From the IMG/VR virus record IMGVR_UViG_3300030372_003828, positions 1 through 30,733 of that record: a stretch of DNA of 30,733 bases. One strand, given 5' to 3'. This document shows, in pieces, positions 2,657 to 30,733 of this stretch. The DNA comes from a virus (Duplodnaviria; Caudoviricetes). The notes under the pieces were generated by a model. That model was given only the letters and a program-made list of their open reading frames with translations, had not been told where the DNA came from and ran no database searches. Within the stretch, counting starts at the first letter, position 1. Each line of letters begins with the position of its first letter. The translations under genes and the position numbers were made by a program.

Positions 2657-3021
2657 AAAAGAAAAGTGAGGGGTTGGGAGATACTATTGATAAAATCTCT
2701 AAAGCTACAGGAATAAAAAAATTAGTTAAATTTGTTGCTGGTGAAGATTGTGGGTGTGAAGAACGTAGAAAAAAATTAAATAAGTTGTTTAGTTATGCAC
2801 CAGACGTAAAATGTCTTAAAGAAGATGAATATCATTTTTTAAGTGGTTGGTTTGCTTTAGAACGTAACACCGTTTCACCCCAGGAACAACAAGATTTAAG
2901 AGATATTTTTAATAGAGTATTTAACAAAAGAACAGATCCAAGTAGTTGTTCATCTTGTGTAAGAGATATGATTGACAGATTAAAAACCGTATATAATGAG
3001 TATGAAAGTAAAAATAAGTAA
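2635..3021 (+). CDS. Cys-motif phage protein, possibly Zn-binding
   Basis: GLGDTI, DCGCEERR and SSCSSCV motifs. Confidence 0.75.
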   Translation: MAKKKTVKKKSEGLGDTIDKISKATGIKKLVKFVAGEDCGCEERRKKLNKLFSYAPDVKCLKEDEYHFLSGWFALERNTVSPQEQQDLRDIFNRVFNKRTDPSSCSSCVRDMIDRLKTVYNEYESKNK

Positions 3022-3580
3022 AGTAAAACCAAATAAAGACAACCCAAGATTAATAAAAGATCACAATTATAATCGGTTAGTTAGAAGCATTGAAGAATTC
3101 CCAGAGATGCTTGAAAAACGCCCTGTTGTGTGTTTTACTGATTCAAATAACAACTATGTTGTTTTAGGTGGAAATATGCGCTTAAAAGCTTCAATTCAAG
3201 CTGGTCTGAAAGAGATACCAATTTTACTTGCAGATGATTGGAGTGAAGAACAAAAAAAACAATTTGTAATAAAAGATAATGTTAGCAGTGGTCTTTGGGA
3301 TTGGGATATGTTGGCAAATGAATGGAGTTCTGAAGATCTTAGTTCCTGGGGCTTGGAAGTCTGGCAAGATGAAAAAATAGATTATGATATTTTAGATGAC
3401 TTTGATATTGAAGAAGAAGTTGATGAAATGAATTCTAATATAAGGAAGGCAATAATGATTGATTTTAGTGTTGATGATTATCCAATTGCTTATGAACTTT
3501 TTAAATATTGGAAAGATAAAGGTTTTGAAATTGGAAAAATGTTAATTAAACATTTGACAGAAGAAAAAGAAAAAGTATGA
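3002..3580 (+). CDS. ParB/Srx N-terminal domain protein
   Basis: KPNKDNPR, LVRSIEEFP, VLGGNMRLKA and FVIKDN...WDWDML motifs, then an acidic linker and a small C-terminal domain. Start is 2996 or 3002. Confidence 0.85.
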   Translation: MKVKISKVKPNKDNPRLIKDHNYNRLVRSIEEFPEMLEKRPVVCFTDSNNNYVVLGGNMRLKASIQAGLKEIPILLADDWSEEQKKQFVIKDNVSSGLWDWDMLANEWSSEDLSSWGLEVWQDEKIDYDILDDFDIEEEVDEMNSNIRKAIMIDFSVDDYPIAYELFKYWKDKGFEIGKMLIKHLTEEKEKV

Positions 3581-4260
3581 AATTATCATTAGAAGAACAT
3601 GATAATATTAAATTTTATTGTAGAGAAAAAACCTCTGATTTTAAAACATTTGAAGAGGTTATTGTCAATAATGTTTATGAAAAAAAGTTCTTTAAAATTA
3701 AACCAAAAGAACATTGGATTGATTTGGGTGGTAATGTTGGTGCTTTCTCATTAGTTGCTTTATCGAAAGGGGCTACAGTTGAAATTTATGAACCTGATCC
3801 ATTCAATTGTAAAATGATCGAAAGAAATTTGAAGTTAAATAATTATAATGCAAAAATTATAAACAAAGCAGTTGTTTCTTCTGAAAAAAAACAAATGACA
3901 ATGTATGTTGCAAATAATTTGCAAGTCTGGAGGAATAGTTTGTATAAAAATTGGGGCAATCAAAAATTTAAAGTTGATTGTATAAATTATAAAGAAGTTA
4001 TTCTTAAAGATTCTAATGTGAAAATGGATATTGAAGGTGCAGAAATGAATATAATTGAAGACATGAAAGTATTTCCAAAAAAATTAATAGTTGAATGGAG
4101 TTTAGACATAGATCCAAATTTGAACAGATACAGAAATGCTATTGATAAATTAAAAGGTAATTATAAAAATATTAATTATAAAAAACAATTTTATAATTTA
4201 CCAGATGATAAAATACCAAATAATATATTCCCAAAAGCTGATAATATTTATTGTTTATGA
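3577..4260 (+). CDS. FkbM-family SAM-dependent methyltransferase
   Basis: WIDLGGNVGAFS (motif I), YEPDPFN, NKAV and KMDIEGAE signature. Confidence 0.88.
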   Translation: MKLSLEEHDNIKFYCREKTSDFKTFEEVIVNNVYEKKFFKIKPKEHWIDLGGNVGAFSLVALSKGATVEIYEPDPFNCKMIERNLKLNNYNAKIINKAVVSSEKKQMTMYVANNLQVWRNSLYKNWGNQKFKVDCINYKEVILKDSNVKMDIEGAEMNIIEDMKVFPKKLIVEWSLDIDPNLNRYRNAIDKLKGNYKNINYKKQFYNLPDDKIPNNIFPKADNIYCL

Positions 4261-5039
4261 AAAAAGTAGAATTAATAAAAAAAGAACACAATGTAAAAAT
4301 TGGTGATAAATGTGGTCATATAAAACCAAATATTACAGAAGATACCTTATTCATTGAAAACGGTGAAATAATAGGGTTCTATTTGAAAGATATTTCAGAA
4401 CATTCAGAAAAACTTTCTAAACTTATTGCTATAGCAAATAAAGAATTGAGAAGTAAAAACGTGCCAAAAAGCGTTATGAAAAGATCTTCTGGCTTTCATT
4501 CAAAAGAAAATGAAGTTTTACAATACTCAACAATTATTGGATCAATTCCAAGTAATACAAGAATGAGAAGGCACTACCCAAGTATATCTTCAGTTCATAA
4601 TAAACCAAGTGCAAAAACTTTTATTAAAGCAATGTTGTTAAGTTGTCAAGAAAGTGAAAATTTAATTAAAAAAATAGCACCAAAAATATATCAGAGGCAA
4701 GTAAAATTGATTGAAGAAAATGTGCCAAAAAAATTTAGGTTTAGTAAGATGTTCACCTCTTCTATTTCTAATTATAATATTCCAGCACCTTTTCATATAG
4801 ATAGGAGAAATATTAAAGGTTGTGTTAACGTTATAATAGCAAAAAAAAAGAATGCAACTGGTGGTAATACAACTGTTCCTGATTATGGTGCAACTGTAGA
4901 TAGCAGTGATAATTCTATGCTTGTATATCCTGCATGGAGAAATATACACGGTGTTACACCGATAGTTCCAACACATAAAGACGGCTACAGAAATAGTTTA
5001 GTATTTTACCCTTTAGATTCTTTTAAAGGTTATTTTTAA
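4251..5039 (+). CDS. TET/JBP-family 2OG-Fe(II) dioxygenase
   Basis: FTSSISNYNIPAPFHIDRRN (HxD), IHGVTPI (distal His) and GYRNSLVFY (2OG-binding Arg). Start may be 4257. Confidence 0.85.
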   Translation: MFMKKVELIKKEHNVKIGDKCGHIKPNITEDTLFIENGEIIGFYLKDISEHSEKLSKLIAIANKELRSKNVPKSVMKRSSGFHSKENEVLQYSTIIGSIPSNTRMRRHYPSISSVHNKPSAKTFIKAMLLSCQESENLIKKIAPKIYQRQVKLIEENVPKKFRFSKMFTSSISNYNIPAPFHIDRRNIKGCVNVIIAKKKNATGGNTTVPDYGATVDSSDNSMLVYPAWRNIHGVTPIVPTHKDGYRNSLVFYPLDSFKGYF

Positions 5040-5049
5040 AAATTGAATT

Positions 5050-5385
5050 ATGGCAAATGAAAAAAATCTAAAAAAACCCTGGAAAAAAGGAGAAAGTGGT
5101 AATCCAAAAGGAAGACCAAAAGGATCAAAAAACAGATCTACTATTGCAAGAAAATGGTTAGAAGTGAAAGAAAAATTTAGAAACCCAATCACTGGTGAAA
5201 TTGAAGAACTAACACAAGAAGATATAACAACTTTAGCACAGATTTTAAAAGCAAGAAAAGGTGATACAAACAGTTACAAAGCACTTGAAGATAGTGCCTA
5301 CGGTTCACCAACCCAACAAATAAATCAAACAATAACAGATCAACCACTTTTCCCAGATGTTCAAGAGGACGAAAGCGATCAATAA
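5050..5385 (+). CDS. terS: Putative terminase small subunit (DUF5681-like)
   Basis: PWKKGESGNPKGRPKGSKN motif; overlaps the terL start. Confidence 0.7.
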   Translation: MANEKNLKKPWKKGESGNPKGRPKGSKNRSTIARKWLEVKEKFRNPITGEIEELTQEDITTLAQILKARKGDTNSYKALEDSAYGSPTQQINQTITDQPLFPDVQEDESDQ

Positions 5386-6514
5386 AATACTTGCTTTAAA
5401 AAAGCGAATTAAAATTATTCAAGGTGGTACAAGTGCTGGAAAAACATACGGCATTATTCCGATCTTAATAAATAAGGCAATCATTAATCCAAATCTTGAA
5501 ATTTCAATTGTTGCTGAAAGTATGCCACATTTAAGAAGGGGGTGTATAAAAGATTTTATAAAAATATTAAAAGAAACAAACAGATATAATGACGAAAACT
5601 TTAACAAAAGTTTTTACAAATATACTTTTTCAAACGGCTCTTTTATTGAATTTTTTTCTGTAGAAGATTCAACTAAATTACGTGGTGCAAGGCGTGACAT
5701 TCTATACTGTAATGAAGCAAATAACATTTCTTTTGAAGCTTACAATGAGTTATCAATAAGAACAGTCAAAGAAGTTTTTCTTGATTTTAACCCTTCTAAT
5801 GAATTTTGGGTGCATACAATTTTAAAAGATGATCCAGATGCAGACTTTTTAATCTTAACTTATAAAGATAATGATGCACTTGATAAAAGAATTGTAAAGG
5901 AAATTGAGAAAGCAAAAGAGAAAGCCGAAACAAGTAATTATTGGCGTAATTGGTGGCGTGTTTATGGTTTGGGATTGGTCGGTAACCTTGTGGGCGTTGT
6001 TATAGAAAATTGGGCTGAAATAGATCATATTCCAAGAGAAGCAAAACTACTTGGTATTGGTCTTGATTTTGGTTATTCTGCAGATCCAACGGCAATTGTT
6101 GAAATATATAAATATAACAACAAAAGAATTGTAAACGAAATATGCTATCAAACTGGTTTAGTAAATTCAGAAATAGCAAAAAAGTTACCTAAACATACTT
6201 TAGTTGTTGGTGATAGCGCAGAACCAAAAAGCATAGAAGAAATAAGAAGATTTGGAATAATGATTAAAGGGGCTACAAAGGGGCGTGATTCAATATTACA
6301 TGGAATTCAATTGATGCAGTCACAAGAATATTTAGTAACCTCACAGAGCAAAAATTTAATAAAAGAATTAAGGTCTTATATTTGGGATACTGATAAGACA
6401 GGCAAACAACTAAACAAACCTAGACCAGGAAACGATCACTTAATTGATGCTTTAAGGTATCATGAAAGCGAAAATTTAGGAAACAAGAATTATGGGCAAT
6501 ACCATATAAAGTAA
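5357..6514 (+). CDS. terL: Terminase large subunit (PBSX-type)
   Basis: Walker A QGGTSAGKT, Walker B LYCNEAN, DFNP, and nuclease motifs GLDFG, DSAEP, DHLIDALRY. Confidence 0.95.
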   Translation: MFKRTKAINKILALKKRIKIIQGGTSAGKTYGIIPILINKAIINPNLEISIVAESMPHLRRGCIKDFIKILKETNRYNDENFNKSFYKYTFSNGSFIEFFSVEDSTKLRGARRDILYCNEANNISFEAYNELSIRTVKEVFLDFNPSNEFWVHTILKDDPDADFLILTYKDNDALDKRIVKEIEKAKEKAETSNYWRNWWRVYGLGLVGNLVGVVIENWAEIDHIPREAKLLGIGLDFGYSADPTAIVEIYKYNNKRIVNEICYQTGLVNSEIAKKLPKHTLVVGDSAEPKSIEEIRRFGIMIKGATKGRDSILHGIQLMQSQEYLVTSQSKNLIKELRSYIWDTDKTGKQLNKPRPGNDHLIDALRYHESENLGNKNYGQYHIK

Positions 6515-25832: not shown

Positions 25833-26156
25833 ATGAAAACAATAGAAGAAAAATATTATAACGGTAGGCAAAGCGTAGAATTTGAAGGAATATATCAGCA
25901 CCAGGAAAACAAACTAAAAATTGAAATTGATATAGATAGTTATGATTTTCAATCGAGTGCAAATATTTTTATATTTAATAAAAAAGATCTTAAATGGAAT
26001 AAAATATCTTCAATACACTATTCGCAAATGTCAAGTAAAGAAGTTTTCTATCAAAGAAAAGTTAAAATGAATGGGGAAGGTTTAAGACTTTTAGAAAAAG
26101 AATTAATATTAAAAGATATTAAAGAACTTAAAAATAAAGCAAAACGTATATTATGA
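25833..26156 (+). CDS. Early hypothetical protein
   Basis: ATG 25833 (MKTIEEKYY) with an A-rich leader is preferred over TTG 25812. Confidence 0.7.
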   Translation: MKTIEEKYYNGRQSVEFEGIYQHQENKLKIEIDIDSYDFQSSANIFIFNKKDLKWNKISSIHYSQMSSKEVFYQRKVKMNGEGLRLLEKELILKDIKELKNKAKRIL

Positions 26157-26953
26157 GAATATTAGTAGGTTGTGAAGAAAGCCAAGTAGTCACAAAAGAA
26201 TTAAGAAAACTTGGTCATGATGCGTACAGTTGTGATATATTAGATTGTAGTGGTGGTAAACCAGAATGGCATATAAAAGGTGATATATTGCCAATTTTAA
26301 AAAAAGATTGGGATATGCTTATAGCTTTTCCACCGTGTACTTATTTAGCAGTTAGTGGTGCAGCTTGGTTTTACCACCCAGACGATTTTGATCTTGATAT
26401 AAAAGATAGAAGACCACACCCAAAACACCCTAACAGAAAAAAATTTCGAAAAGATGCACTGAAATTTGTTACTGATTTAATGAACGCACCTATTGAAAGA
26501 ATAGCTATTGAAAATCCAATAGGTTCAATAAGTACGTATATTAGAAAACCTGATCAAATTATACAACCCTGGCAATTTGGAGATAAAGCACAAAAATCAA
26601 CTTGCTTATGGTTAAAGAATTTACCAAAATTAAAACCTACAAATATAGTTGAAAAAGGTGAGTTTTTTGAATGGATTGACAGTAGAAGTGGTAAGAAAAA
26701 AAGGCAGCCATTATGGTTTTACCAAGCTTTACAGAAAGCAAAAACACCTGAAGAAAGAAGAACCCTAAGAAGTAAAACTTTTCCAGGTATTGCTGAAGCA
26801 ATGGCAAAACAATGGACAAAAGGTAAATTTTTAAAACAACTAAATTTATTCGAAGAAGAAAAAAAATGTACTTTTAATTTTAATGATTGTGATAATTTAA
26901 AACACGATTTTTGTAATGATTGTGATGAAGGTGATAATTATGAAAAATTTTAA
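26153..26953 (+). CDS. C5-cytosine DNA methyltransferase-like protein
   Basis: Variant motif I (ILVGCEESQ), SCDI, GDI, catalytic FPPCT (motif IV), IENP (motif VI), QPWQFG, TCLWLKNLP and RSKTFPGIAEAMAKQW. Confidence 0.8.
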   Translation: MRILVGCEESQVVTKELRKLGHDAYSCDILDCSGGKPEWHIKGDILPILKKDWDMLIAFPPCTYLAVSGAAWFYHPDDFDLDIKDRRPHPKHPNRKKFRKDALKFVTDLMNAPIERIAIENPIGSISTYIRKPDQIIQPWQFGDKAQKSTCLWLKNLPKLKPTNIVEKGEFFEWIDSRSGKKKRQPLWFYQALQKAKTPEERRTLRSKTFPGIAEAMAKQWTKGKFLKQLNLFEEEKKCTFNFNDCDNLKHDFCNDCDEGDNYEKF

Positions 26954-30061: not shown

Positions 30062-30643
30062 ATGAGCAAAACAACTGATAAGGTAATTGCCTTAAAACAA
30101 GCAGAAGAACAAACTGCAAAAACAAATCAAAGAACAAAAGTAAATTTAAAAACTGTAAACATAAAGGGAAAGCCCTATGTTACAGTTGATGAACGTCTAA
30201 TTTATTTCCGGGATCATTACCCTAACTATTCTTTAGTTAGCGAAGTAATTGAAAAAACTGAAGATTCAATTCTTATCAAAGCAATTATATTAGATGAAAA
30301 AAATAGAATAATTGCAACTGGTCTGGCTGAAGAAGAAAAAGGAAGTAACTATATAAACAAAACCTCTTATGTTGAGAATTGTGAAACATCTGCTTGGGGA
30401 AGGGCTTTAGCAAATTTTGGTATTGGTATTGATGCTGGTAGTGTGGCAAGTGCTGAAGAAGTTATTAATGCTATTAACAATCAAAATAAAGGGCAAAACG
30501 TTAAATTTAAAAAAGGTTCTTTAACAGATATACAATTTCAAAGAGCAATACAAAGTATTAAAGAAGGTAGTTATACCAAAGAACAATTGCTAAAAACATT
30601 TAAATTAAATACACAACAAACTAAAAAACTAACATCATGCTAA
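30062..30643 (+). CDS. Putative single-strand annealing protein (Rad52/Sak/Erf-like), allele B
   Basis: IKGKPYVTVDERL, ATGLAEE and ENCETSAWGRAL motifs; directly upstream of the exonuclease and SSB genes. Confidence 0.7.
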   Translation: MSKTTDKVIALKQAEEQTAKTNQRTKVNLKTVNIKGKPYVTVDERLIYFRDHYPNYSLVSEVIEKTEDSILIKAIILDEKNRIIATGLAEEEKGSNYINKTSYVENCETSAWGRALANFGIGIDAGSVASAEEVINAINNQNKGQNVKFKKGSLTDIQFQRAIQSIKEGSYTKEQLLKTFKLNTQQTKKLTSC

Positions 30644-30733
30644 AAATAAGATGTTCACAGATTGGCAAAATAATGACCAATCCAAGATCTAAAAAAGAAA
30701 CATTGTCAAACACAACAAAGGGTTATTTGAAAG
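30380..30733. repeat. Imperfect terminal direct repeat, copy 2 (includes the 5' end of the exonuclease gene from 30637)
   Basis: Matches 1-363 with a diverged core. Confidence 0.95.

Follow-up and report, generated by a model that had tools for sequence, protein, structure and literature searches.

A phage ParB-FkbM-TET/JBP cassette predicted to cap 5-hydroxymethyluracil in DNA with a methyl group

Introduction

Why would a bacteriophage keep a methyltransferase gene between a ParB-like protein and a dioxygenase of the TET/JBP type? The question is raised by a locus in IMGVR_UViG_3300030372_003828, an IMG/VR record of a marine tailed phage (Duplodnaviria; Caudoviricetes), all 30,733 nucleotides of which were analysed and are here called the window. 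An earlier, sequence-only reading of this DNA had pointed to three overlapping genes, and that arrangement is confirmed. The open reading frames (ORFs) for a ParB-like protein (3002..3580, plus strand; PF02195, ParB_N, E 1.6e-7), an FkbM-family methyltransferase dependent on S-adenosylmethionine (SAM) (3577..4260, plus strand; PF05050, Methyltransf_21, E 8.9e-7; TIGR01444) and a TET/JBP Fe(II)/2-oxoglutarate dioxygenase of 260 amino acids (4257..5039, plus strand; PF12851, Tet_JBP, E 4e-9) are all intact, are joined by ATGA overlaps and lie ahead of the terminase genes, and all three Pfam matches exceed the curated cut-offs. The dioxygenase start is corrected from 4251 to the ATG at 4257, within the ATGA overlap of the FkbM stop, as relatives indicate.

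We propose that this translationally coupled cassette likely modifies finished phage DNA by two successive reactions. In the first, the TET/JBP enzyme, probably aided by ParB, would hydroxylate the methyl group of some thymines to give 5-hydroxymethyluracil (5hmU), and the FkbM enzyme would then transfer a methyl group from SAM to the 5hmU hydroxyl, giving 5-methoxymethyluracil. Such a cap would offer, with a single gene, an alternative to the routes that act on the same hydroxyl through a kinase and amino-acid transferase or through a glycosyltransferase, and its likely use would be to conceal sites from nucleases or glycosylases of the host. 5-Methoxymethyluracil, made by SAM-dependent O-methylation, is our best guess at the product and, judged from gene content, a reasonably likely one. 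That the methyltransferase acts on an oxidised base in DNA seems to us quite probable; granted this, an O-methyl ether rather than another linkage is also to be expected with good confidence.

Results

A virus-specific FkbM family

The window methyltransferase scores 61.9 bits against TIGR01444 (fkbM_fam; cut-off 37.7), and the motifs that had been quoted for it, DLGGNVG, EPD and KMDIEGAE, are all present in the translation. It has a class I SAM-binding fold with DxGxxxG and KxDxEGxE motifs, and besides these its family has its own invariant residues (R16, D21, E27, Y34, R119 and E173). Family members score 214-293 bits, versus at most 120 for generic FkbM loci, and in a tree that also included 40 of the 80 generic sequences, the 32 family rows all lie on one side of a branch. 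Median net charge per 100 amino acids is +0.4 to +1.7 in the family and -2.9 in generic FkbM proteins, a difference of little weight, as the generic rows were domain-trimmed. A profile search returned 648 family clusters at 50% identity (E up to 1e-30); this is a maximum, as fringe members may be counted in it. A sequence search of solved structures with single cassette proteins gave nothing useful. On sequence grounds, the methyltransferase belongs to a distinct, virus-specific, 5hmU-linked FkbM family, and the window enzyme is predicted to be a 5hmU-DNA O-methyltransferase.

Genes that accompany the family

In an FkbM-first scan of the best 80 of 347 loci, a TET gene was present at every locus, in either gene order, so that the pairing without a glycosyltransferase does recur in phages, as had been asked of it. 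The same FkbM family also pairs with TETs only 22-28% identical to that of the window (L114, L161). A census of 266 viral loci, 198 of them with a family member, gave 88 clusters at 90%. TET is present in 74 of these, and one more (L149) combines TET with a kinase and an amino acid:DNA transferase (AADT). Seven clusters are TET-less with a thymidylate-synthase-type gene, an HMUDK_hel gene or both, four more are of the same kind plus kinase/AADT, and two have neither context (L341, and L324, where the contig begins at the gene). Among 80 generic bacterial FkbM loci none carries a TET, synthase or HMUDK_hel gene. One further locus, L190, whose divergent FkbM scores 107 bits beside TET and TAGT, fell below threshold and outside the census.

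The TET-less members point to the same base. A wider scan found them on 14 contigs, three of which are at least 90% complete, with no Tet_JBP match on any, a thymidylate-synthase-like gene on 12 and HMUDK on three. The synthase of L340 is nearest (45%) to genes annotated as deoxyuridylate hydroxymethyltransferase in Bordetella phages MW2 and CN1; the L348 synthase has no match above about 32% identity, the best being a 'pyrimidine hmase'. We infer that the synthase is the hydroxymethylase of these phages. A thymidylate-synthase-type route yields 5hmU and allows no further oxidation. In seven TET-less loci (L328, L330, L332, L338, L340, L348, L351) an HMUDK_hel gene stands immediately before the methyltransferase, and searches of those seven contigs for the HMUDK kinase were negative; HMUDK_hel may be the partner of the methyltransferase there.

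Physical fusion provides a second link. Ten of the 24 longest proteins among the best 150 of the profile search join Tet_JBP and FkbM in a single chain, in both orders (one is partial), and locus L327 holds such a TET-FkbM fusion. A search from a narrow alignment had returned no longer fused forms, a misleading result, as the full profile search found many. In a further seven proteins (P0137, P0237, P0179, P0213, P0215, P0224 and P0230) the family methyltransferase is fused to short, divergent TET-like domains missed by Pfam.

Cultured phages carry the cassette as well. In P-HS2 (MED4-184) and MED4-117 the FkbM protein is 43% and the TET 51% identical, and the order ParB-FkbM-TET-terminase was checked in P-HS2. 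The order in HTVC112P is ParB-TET-FkbM, and its TET resembles 5mYOX187 by eye.

An exchangeable slot between ParB and TET

A TET-first scan covered the best 80 of 260 TET relatives, nearly all of which have ParB upstream, and dereplication at 95% left 38 loci. Beside ParB-TET these carry FkbM (11), kinase, AADT or GATase genes (11), a glycosyltransferase (2) or no further gene (14), and FkbM never occurs with another slot gene (0/38; Fisher p 0.006, on rows that are non-independent). Of the two glycosyltransferase slots, L065 was recognised by Pfam TAGT and L078 by eye; the 301-aa gene of the latter (L078:4158-5063), which is also found at L080, has no Pfam or NCBIfam match. One locus counted as empty, L011, retains an FkbM remnant with a large internal deletion (L011:2847-3010), a sign of recent loss.

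TETs that are 96% identical stand beside FkbM in L028 and beside GATase/AADT/kinase in L037, and across the starred branches of a 108-row TET tree the FkbM state switches at least nine times. In the nearest relative of the window, L001 (terminase 99%, TET 88%), ParB runs by ATGA into TET, a clean whole-gene difference. An independent seawater run contains a depth-710 contig that joins ParB to TET without FkbM, together with near-identical FkbM pieces at depth 10-14, and the complete genome G024 has ParB-TET without FkbM, AADT or TAGT. Because the closest relatives lack the gene and the slot is interchangeable, FkbM is accessory and stands in for enzymes that act on the 5hmU hydroxyl. Kinases and amino-acid transferases of the slot type are described as acting on 5hmU-DNA in the available part of PMC8989533. 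The expectation that the TET-FkbM pairing would be conserved in related phages thus holds for its widespread recurrence but not for the closest relatives.

Thymine rather than cytosine

Twenty-two cassette genomes, 16 of them complete or at least 90% complete, were searched for genes that would identify the base. A C5-methyltransferase was found by phrog_757 in 3 of the 21 others and by PF00145 in 4 of the 22; counting the window's own gene, five genomes have one and 17 do not, and neither of the two cultured complete cassette genomes searched has one. The C5-cytosine-methyltransferase-like gene of the window (26153..26953, plus strand; phrog_757 E 9.5e-64) is unlinked to the cassette, has no PF00145 match and, aligned pairwise to a canonical C5-methyltransferase, is similar only around the PC motif. 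We do not count it as part of the module, since such a gene is missing from 17 of 22 cassette genomes. The CpG observed/expected ratio is 0.57 in the window and is also low in genomes without a methylase (0.55 in G009, 0.64 in G013), and dinucleotide bias does not separate genomes with a C5-methyltransferase from those without. TAGT and AADT were found in none of the 22 genomes (positive controls 4/4 each), and PF18724 and PF18748 (5hmU-DNA kinase and amino acid:DNA transferase) are absent from the window's record, with positive controls giving matches. Because 17 of 22 genomes lack a C5-methyltransferase and the slot holds 5hmU-hydroxyl-using enzymes in relatives, we consider it highly probable that the substrate base is thymine, not cytosine.

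The dioxygenase and ParB

In 21 aligned dioxygenases H180-x-D182, H231 and R245 (counting residues from the start at 4257) do not vary, and the window protein scores 36.4 bits against Tet_JBP (Pfam cut-off 34.9). Its AlphaFold model (predicted local distance difference test score 93) has CcTet, TET2, CMD1 and NgTET1 as top fold matches, ahead of FTO and AlkB. The intact HxD...H...R set and the TET/JBP identity claimed by the sequence-only reading therefore stand, and the enzyme is predicted to convert thymine to 5hmU. The label 'queuine tRNA-ribosyltransferase' (phrog_6059, RefSeq phage records) for this TET family is ruled out by Pfam and fold, by which the 'DnaJ/SNF2' annotation of the HTVC112P TET is also wrong. 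At one motif the window enzyme reads HIDRRN, as does L089, where the clade has HRDxGN, and it also deviates from the PPKPHM motif; these departures might alter sequence preference.

The window TET stops nine residues past the last invariant Tyr, and two enzymes resembling clade C1 of the 5mYOX dioxygenases (L161, L191) extend 20-30 residues further. It is 22% identical to a C1-like enzyme and sits on a long branch apart from the C1-like loci, in a tree built without the tested 5mYOX enzymes themselves and with L161 placed in C1 by eye. A scan seeded with the L114 TET returned only L114 itself. By sequence comparison, the C-terminal extension known from characterised ParB-dependent enzymes is missing in the clade of the window TET.

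ParB, with in-frame ATGs at both 2996 and 3002, is 192 amino acids long and consists of a PF02195 domain (residues 4-95), an acidic linker and a conserved C-terminal domain; judged from its length, it lacks the helix-turn-helix DNA-binding domain. Across 29 aligned relatives the C-terminal ~65 residues are conserved and the N-terminal domain is variable, which suggests that the C-terminal part is the portion tied to this TET clade. At least three different N-terminal domain types occur among the relatives (e.g. L057, L149); in the window the C-terminal part lies at 3400-3580. A complex prediction for a ParB C-terminal dimer with TET gave the same score as its control.

The surrounding record

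Directly downstream of the cassette lie a terminase small subunit gene (5050-5385, plus strand; inferred from position and DUF5681) and a terminase large subunit gene (5357-6514, plus strand; Pfam/PHROGs scan), an arrangement shared by most relatives. The Pfam and PHROGs scan took in 43 plus-strand ORFs, leaving short and minus-strand ORFs outside it. These 43 include no glycosyltransferase, kinase or carbamoyltransferase, and TAGT, AADT, HMUDK and thymidylate synthase gave no match when the whole record was searched for them, in agreement with the sequence-only reading within that scope. The source record, of which the window is the whole, is a near-complete 30 kb phage (99% by CheckV). Its ends overlap (1-363 versus 30379-30732) at 90% identity, which probably reflects the merging of two strains, or of a recombinant, during assembly. 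Region 2900-5200 lies on one contig in two public assemblies, which are possibly the source of the same DNA. No RNA data set was listed as containing the cassette.

Discussion

We favour 5-methoxymethyluracil as the product because 5hmU is common to the TET-linked, TET-fused and synthase-linked contexts and because FkbM enzymes O-methylate; in the accessible text of PMC9811515 they are O-methyltransferases with one exception, the N-methyltransferase EreM. The earlier proposal that the hydroxymethyl group is capped directly by methylation is thereby kept in its core, but its choice of C or U narrows to U and its methyl-ester variant is weakened.

Several observations weigh against this interpretation. 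EreM itself establishes that an FkbM enzyme can N-methylate. The fold search is silent on the acceptor, with the best Z of 13.4 to RNA methyltransferases and 11.9 to FkbM 2py6; the branch that holds the family has a Shimodaira-Hasegawa-like approximate likelihood ratio (SH-aLRT) of only 85; and the TET share of the census, 75 of 88 clusters, is inflated by TET-first scans. The window's TET clade, whose activity is predicted, lacks the C-terminal extension that 5mYOX176 requires. In TET-less phages the methyltransferase usually adjoins HMUDK_hel, a protein of unclear role, and 4 of 11 TET-less clusters carry kinase/AADT. L149:5396-9509 combines ParB, FkbM, AADT, kinase and TET, the only TET locus with both routes. 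L190:1056-3360 has TET, a divergent FkbM and TAGT, two of the fusions to short TET-like domains additionally carry a TAGT-like domain, and eight FkbM loci have an unlinked GT-B gene no more than 6 kb away, with such a gene also in 2 of 10 whole genomes. Finally, L341 and P0187 pair the methyltransferase with a radical SAM enzyme and have no TET. These minority contexts (kinase/AADT, TAGT-like fusion, HMUDK_hel and radical SAM) leave room for other chemistry.

Some of these loci are of interest in themselves. L149 additionally has a 270-aa gene that looks FAD-oxidoreductase-like by eye and has no Pfam match. In L190 and L201 the methyltransferase after ParB-TET is of a different kind, either a divergent FkbM or some other class I enzyme, and is accompanied by a TAGT-like gene; it may act on the sugar instead. 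At L341:4285-6952, genes for ParB, a member of the methyltransferase family and a radical SAM enzyme of the PA0069 type lie side by side on a contig (42% complete) that has neither TET nor synthase, and in P0187 the methyltransferase is fused to a radical SAM domain 44% identical to that of L341. It is tempting to speculate that the radical SAM enzyme could be an oxygen-independent means of activating the thymine methyl group.

Of the alternatives, the one that survives best, although we think it unlikely, is that the methyltransferase belongs to the 5hmU pathway but acts on a ring nitrogen or on a later adduct (phosphate, amino acid or sugar). The co-occurrence with kinase/AADT (L149 and the 4 of 11 TET-less clusters), the TAGT-like fusions, the adjacency to HMUDK_hel and N-methylation by EreM would all fit it. 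A later adduct is nevertheless disfavoured because most TET cassettes carry no other modifying enzyme: the flanks retrieved for 74 of 75 TET-linked clusters hold neither kinase, AADT nor GATase, and no glycosyltransferase of the slot type, and TAGT and AADT are missing from 22 of 22 whole records. An adduct supplied by a common host partner also seems unlikely for hosts as different as Prochlorococcus and Pelagibacter. Methylation of 5hmU at N3 would disrupt its pairing with A, which counts against the ring nitrogen.

Less probable still would be a dioxygenase that proceeds to 5-carboxyuracil (5caU), of which the methyltransferase would form the methyl ester. Phage thymine dioxygenases do oxidise iteratively in vitro, with 5mYOX97 making much 5caU on circular DNA, but the ParB-dependent 5mYOX176 yields less than 3% 5-formyluracil or 5caU (available sections of PMC13229309). 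The TET-FkbM fusions are compatible with either product. We disfavour the ester because the synthase route cannot give 5caU, and 11 family clusters occur in just such TET-less synthase-type or hmU-kinase contexts.

We regard it as very improbable that the cassette works on cytosine, with 5-methylcytosine (5mC), from 26153-26953 or a host methylase, passing through 5-hydroxymethylcytosine to 5-methoxymethylcytosine. The C5-methyltransferase-like gene and CpG depletion in the window would suit this route, as would the ability of 5mYOX97 and 5mYOX176 to oxidise 5mC also in vitro (same sections of PMC13229309). The gene is, however, 21 kb away and missing from 17 of 22 cassette genomes, CpG is low also without a methylase, and near-identical TETs work with 5hmU-specific kinases. 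Least credible is a methyltransferase that merely rides in the variable slot and has a non-DNA substrate (protein, glycan or small molecule): generic FkbM enzymes do act on small molecules and glycans, and the gene is dispensable, with closest relatives lacking it and both alleles in a single seawater run, but 86 of 88 clusters lie beside 5hmU-making genes versus 0 of 80 generic controls, fusions exist in both orders, and the link holds in different gene orders and in TET clades that are far apart.

A 5-methoxymethyluracil pathway would share parts with several characterised systems. ParB-activated thymine oxidation has been shown for 5mYOX clade C1, for example 5mYOX176/ParB176, and 5mYOX187 with ParB gave 0.5-1.1% 5hmU (O'Toole et al., PNAS 2026, PMC13229309, in the sections available). 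By analogy with these ParB-activated thymine dioxygenases, ParB likely activates the dioxygenase of the window. As in clade C1, a ParB with N- and C-terminal domains adjoins a Tet_JBP enzyme next to terminase, no C5-methyltransferase is adjacent, and relatives carry kinase/AADT/GATase. Unlike C1, the window TET is shorter, and those sections describe the C-terminal extension as found only in ParB-dependent enzymes; the examined portion of Dataset S11 of PMC13229309 holds no sequence resembling the window's TET clade. Because that extension is missing from the TET, whose identity to a C1-like enzyme is 22%, we do not file the cassette as a C1 member, although by its gene content it appears to work like the ParB-dependent thymine dioxygenase class.

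The cassette also resembles the kinase/AADT thymidine hypermodification systems of M6, ViI, PaMx11, PhiW-14 and SP10 (Lee et al., PMC8989533, available part) in its predicted substrate, the 5hmU hydroxyl, and the genes of those systems replace FkbM in the slot. They proceed by phosphorylation and displacement with several enzymes, whereas the cassette would use just one SAM enzyme, to attach one methyl group. TET/JBP hydroxylation of finished DNA followed by hydroxyl capping is likewise known from phages with C5-methyltransferase, TET and glycosyltransferase (clades A/B; passages of Burke et al. 2021, PMC8256090, and Pyle et al. 2023, 10.1101/2023.12.21.572611) and from trypanosome base J. In contrast to these, the cassette has no linked C5-methyltransferase or glycosyltransferase, and the hydroxyl would end as a methyl ether where theirs receives a sugar. 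The enzyme itself is like the FkbM family (PF05050, TIGR01444; structure 2py6) in its above-cut-off profile match, class I fold and SAM motifs, and unlike generic FkbM proteins in forming a separate family with its own invariant residues.

How much of this is new? The sequence-only reading took the cap to be uncharacterised in phage DNA, and the product is indeed unreported in the literature searched, but ParB-dependent thymine dioxygenases are characterised, FkbM has been counted and O-methylation has been named. In the available sections of PMC13229309, an FkbM O-methyltransferase is counted in 1479/23070 to 1777/25240 mined contigs (6-7%) and the enzyme is not studied, and the preprint 10.1101/2025.08.14.668559 mentions O-methylation in passing as a possible follow-up. 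Our searches found no DNA-acting FkbM member. The passages of PMC8256090 and 10.1101/2023.12.21.572611 that were available do not mention FkbM, and there was no term match in PMC8670742 or the PMC8989533 supplement. Neither the product nor FkbM action on DNA is reported in the literature searched, in which subscription papers are thinly covered; within the same literature, methoxymethyl-pyrimidine names led to no DNA-modification paper and a search on P-HS2 DNA modification to no report of the product. Iyer and colleagues are said to have treated phage TET/JBP neighbourhoods in 2013 and may already have predicted a methylation step. The slot exchange, the TET-less synthase contexts, the generic-FkbM controls and the within-population polymorphism are new here.

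If the proposed chemistry is correct, it would add a new DNA base and a new kind of DNA methyltransferase, one that O-methylates a modified base in the polymer, and would provide a one-step, SAM-based handle for 5hmU labelling. It would also account for the single gene that most often partners this TET clade. The cultured carriers P-HS2, MED4-117 and HTVC112P make the cassette directly testable. More broadly, we put at slightly better than even the chance that a viral family O-methylates 5hmU in DNA and that 5-methoxymethyluracil occurs naturally in the DNA of phages from the sea and fresh water, and probably of giant viruses, with an enzyme that plugs into several TET clades, fusions, replication-time hydroxymethylases and perhaps radical SAM systems. 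The base would then be expected in at least three cultured Prochlorococcus/SAR11 phages. The methyltransferase family is large and is found in phages of the most abundant ocean bacteria, and the presence and absence of FkbM inside one population suggests that the methyl cap may be a switchable counter-defence trait.

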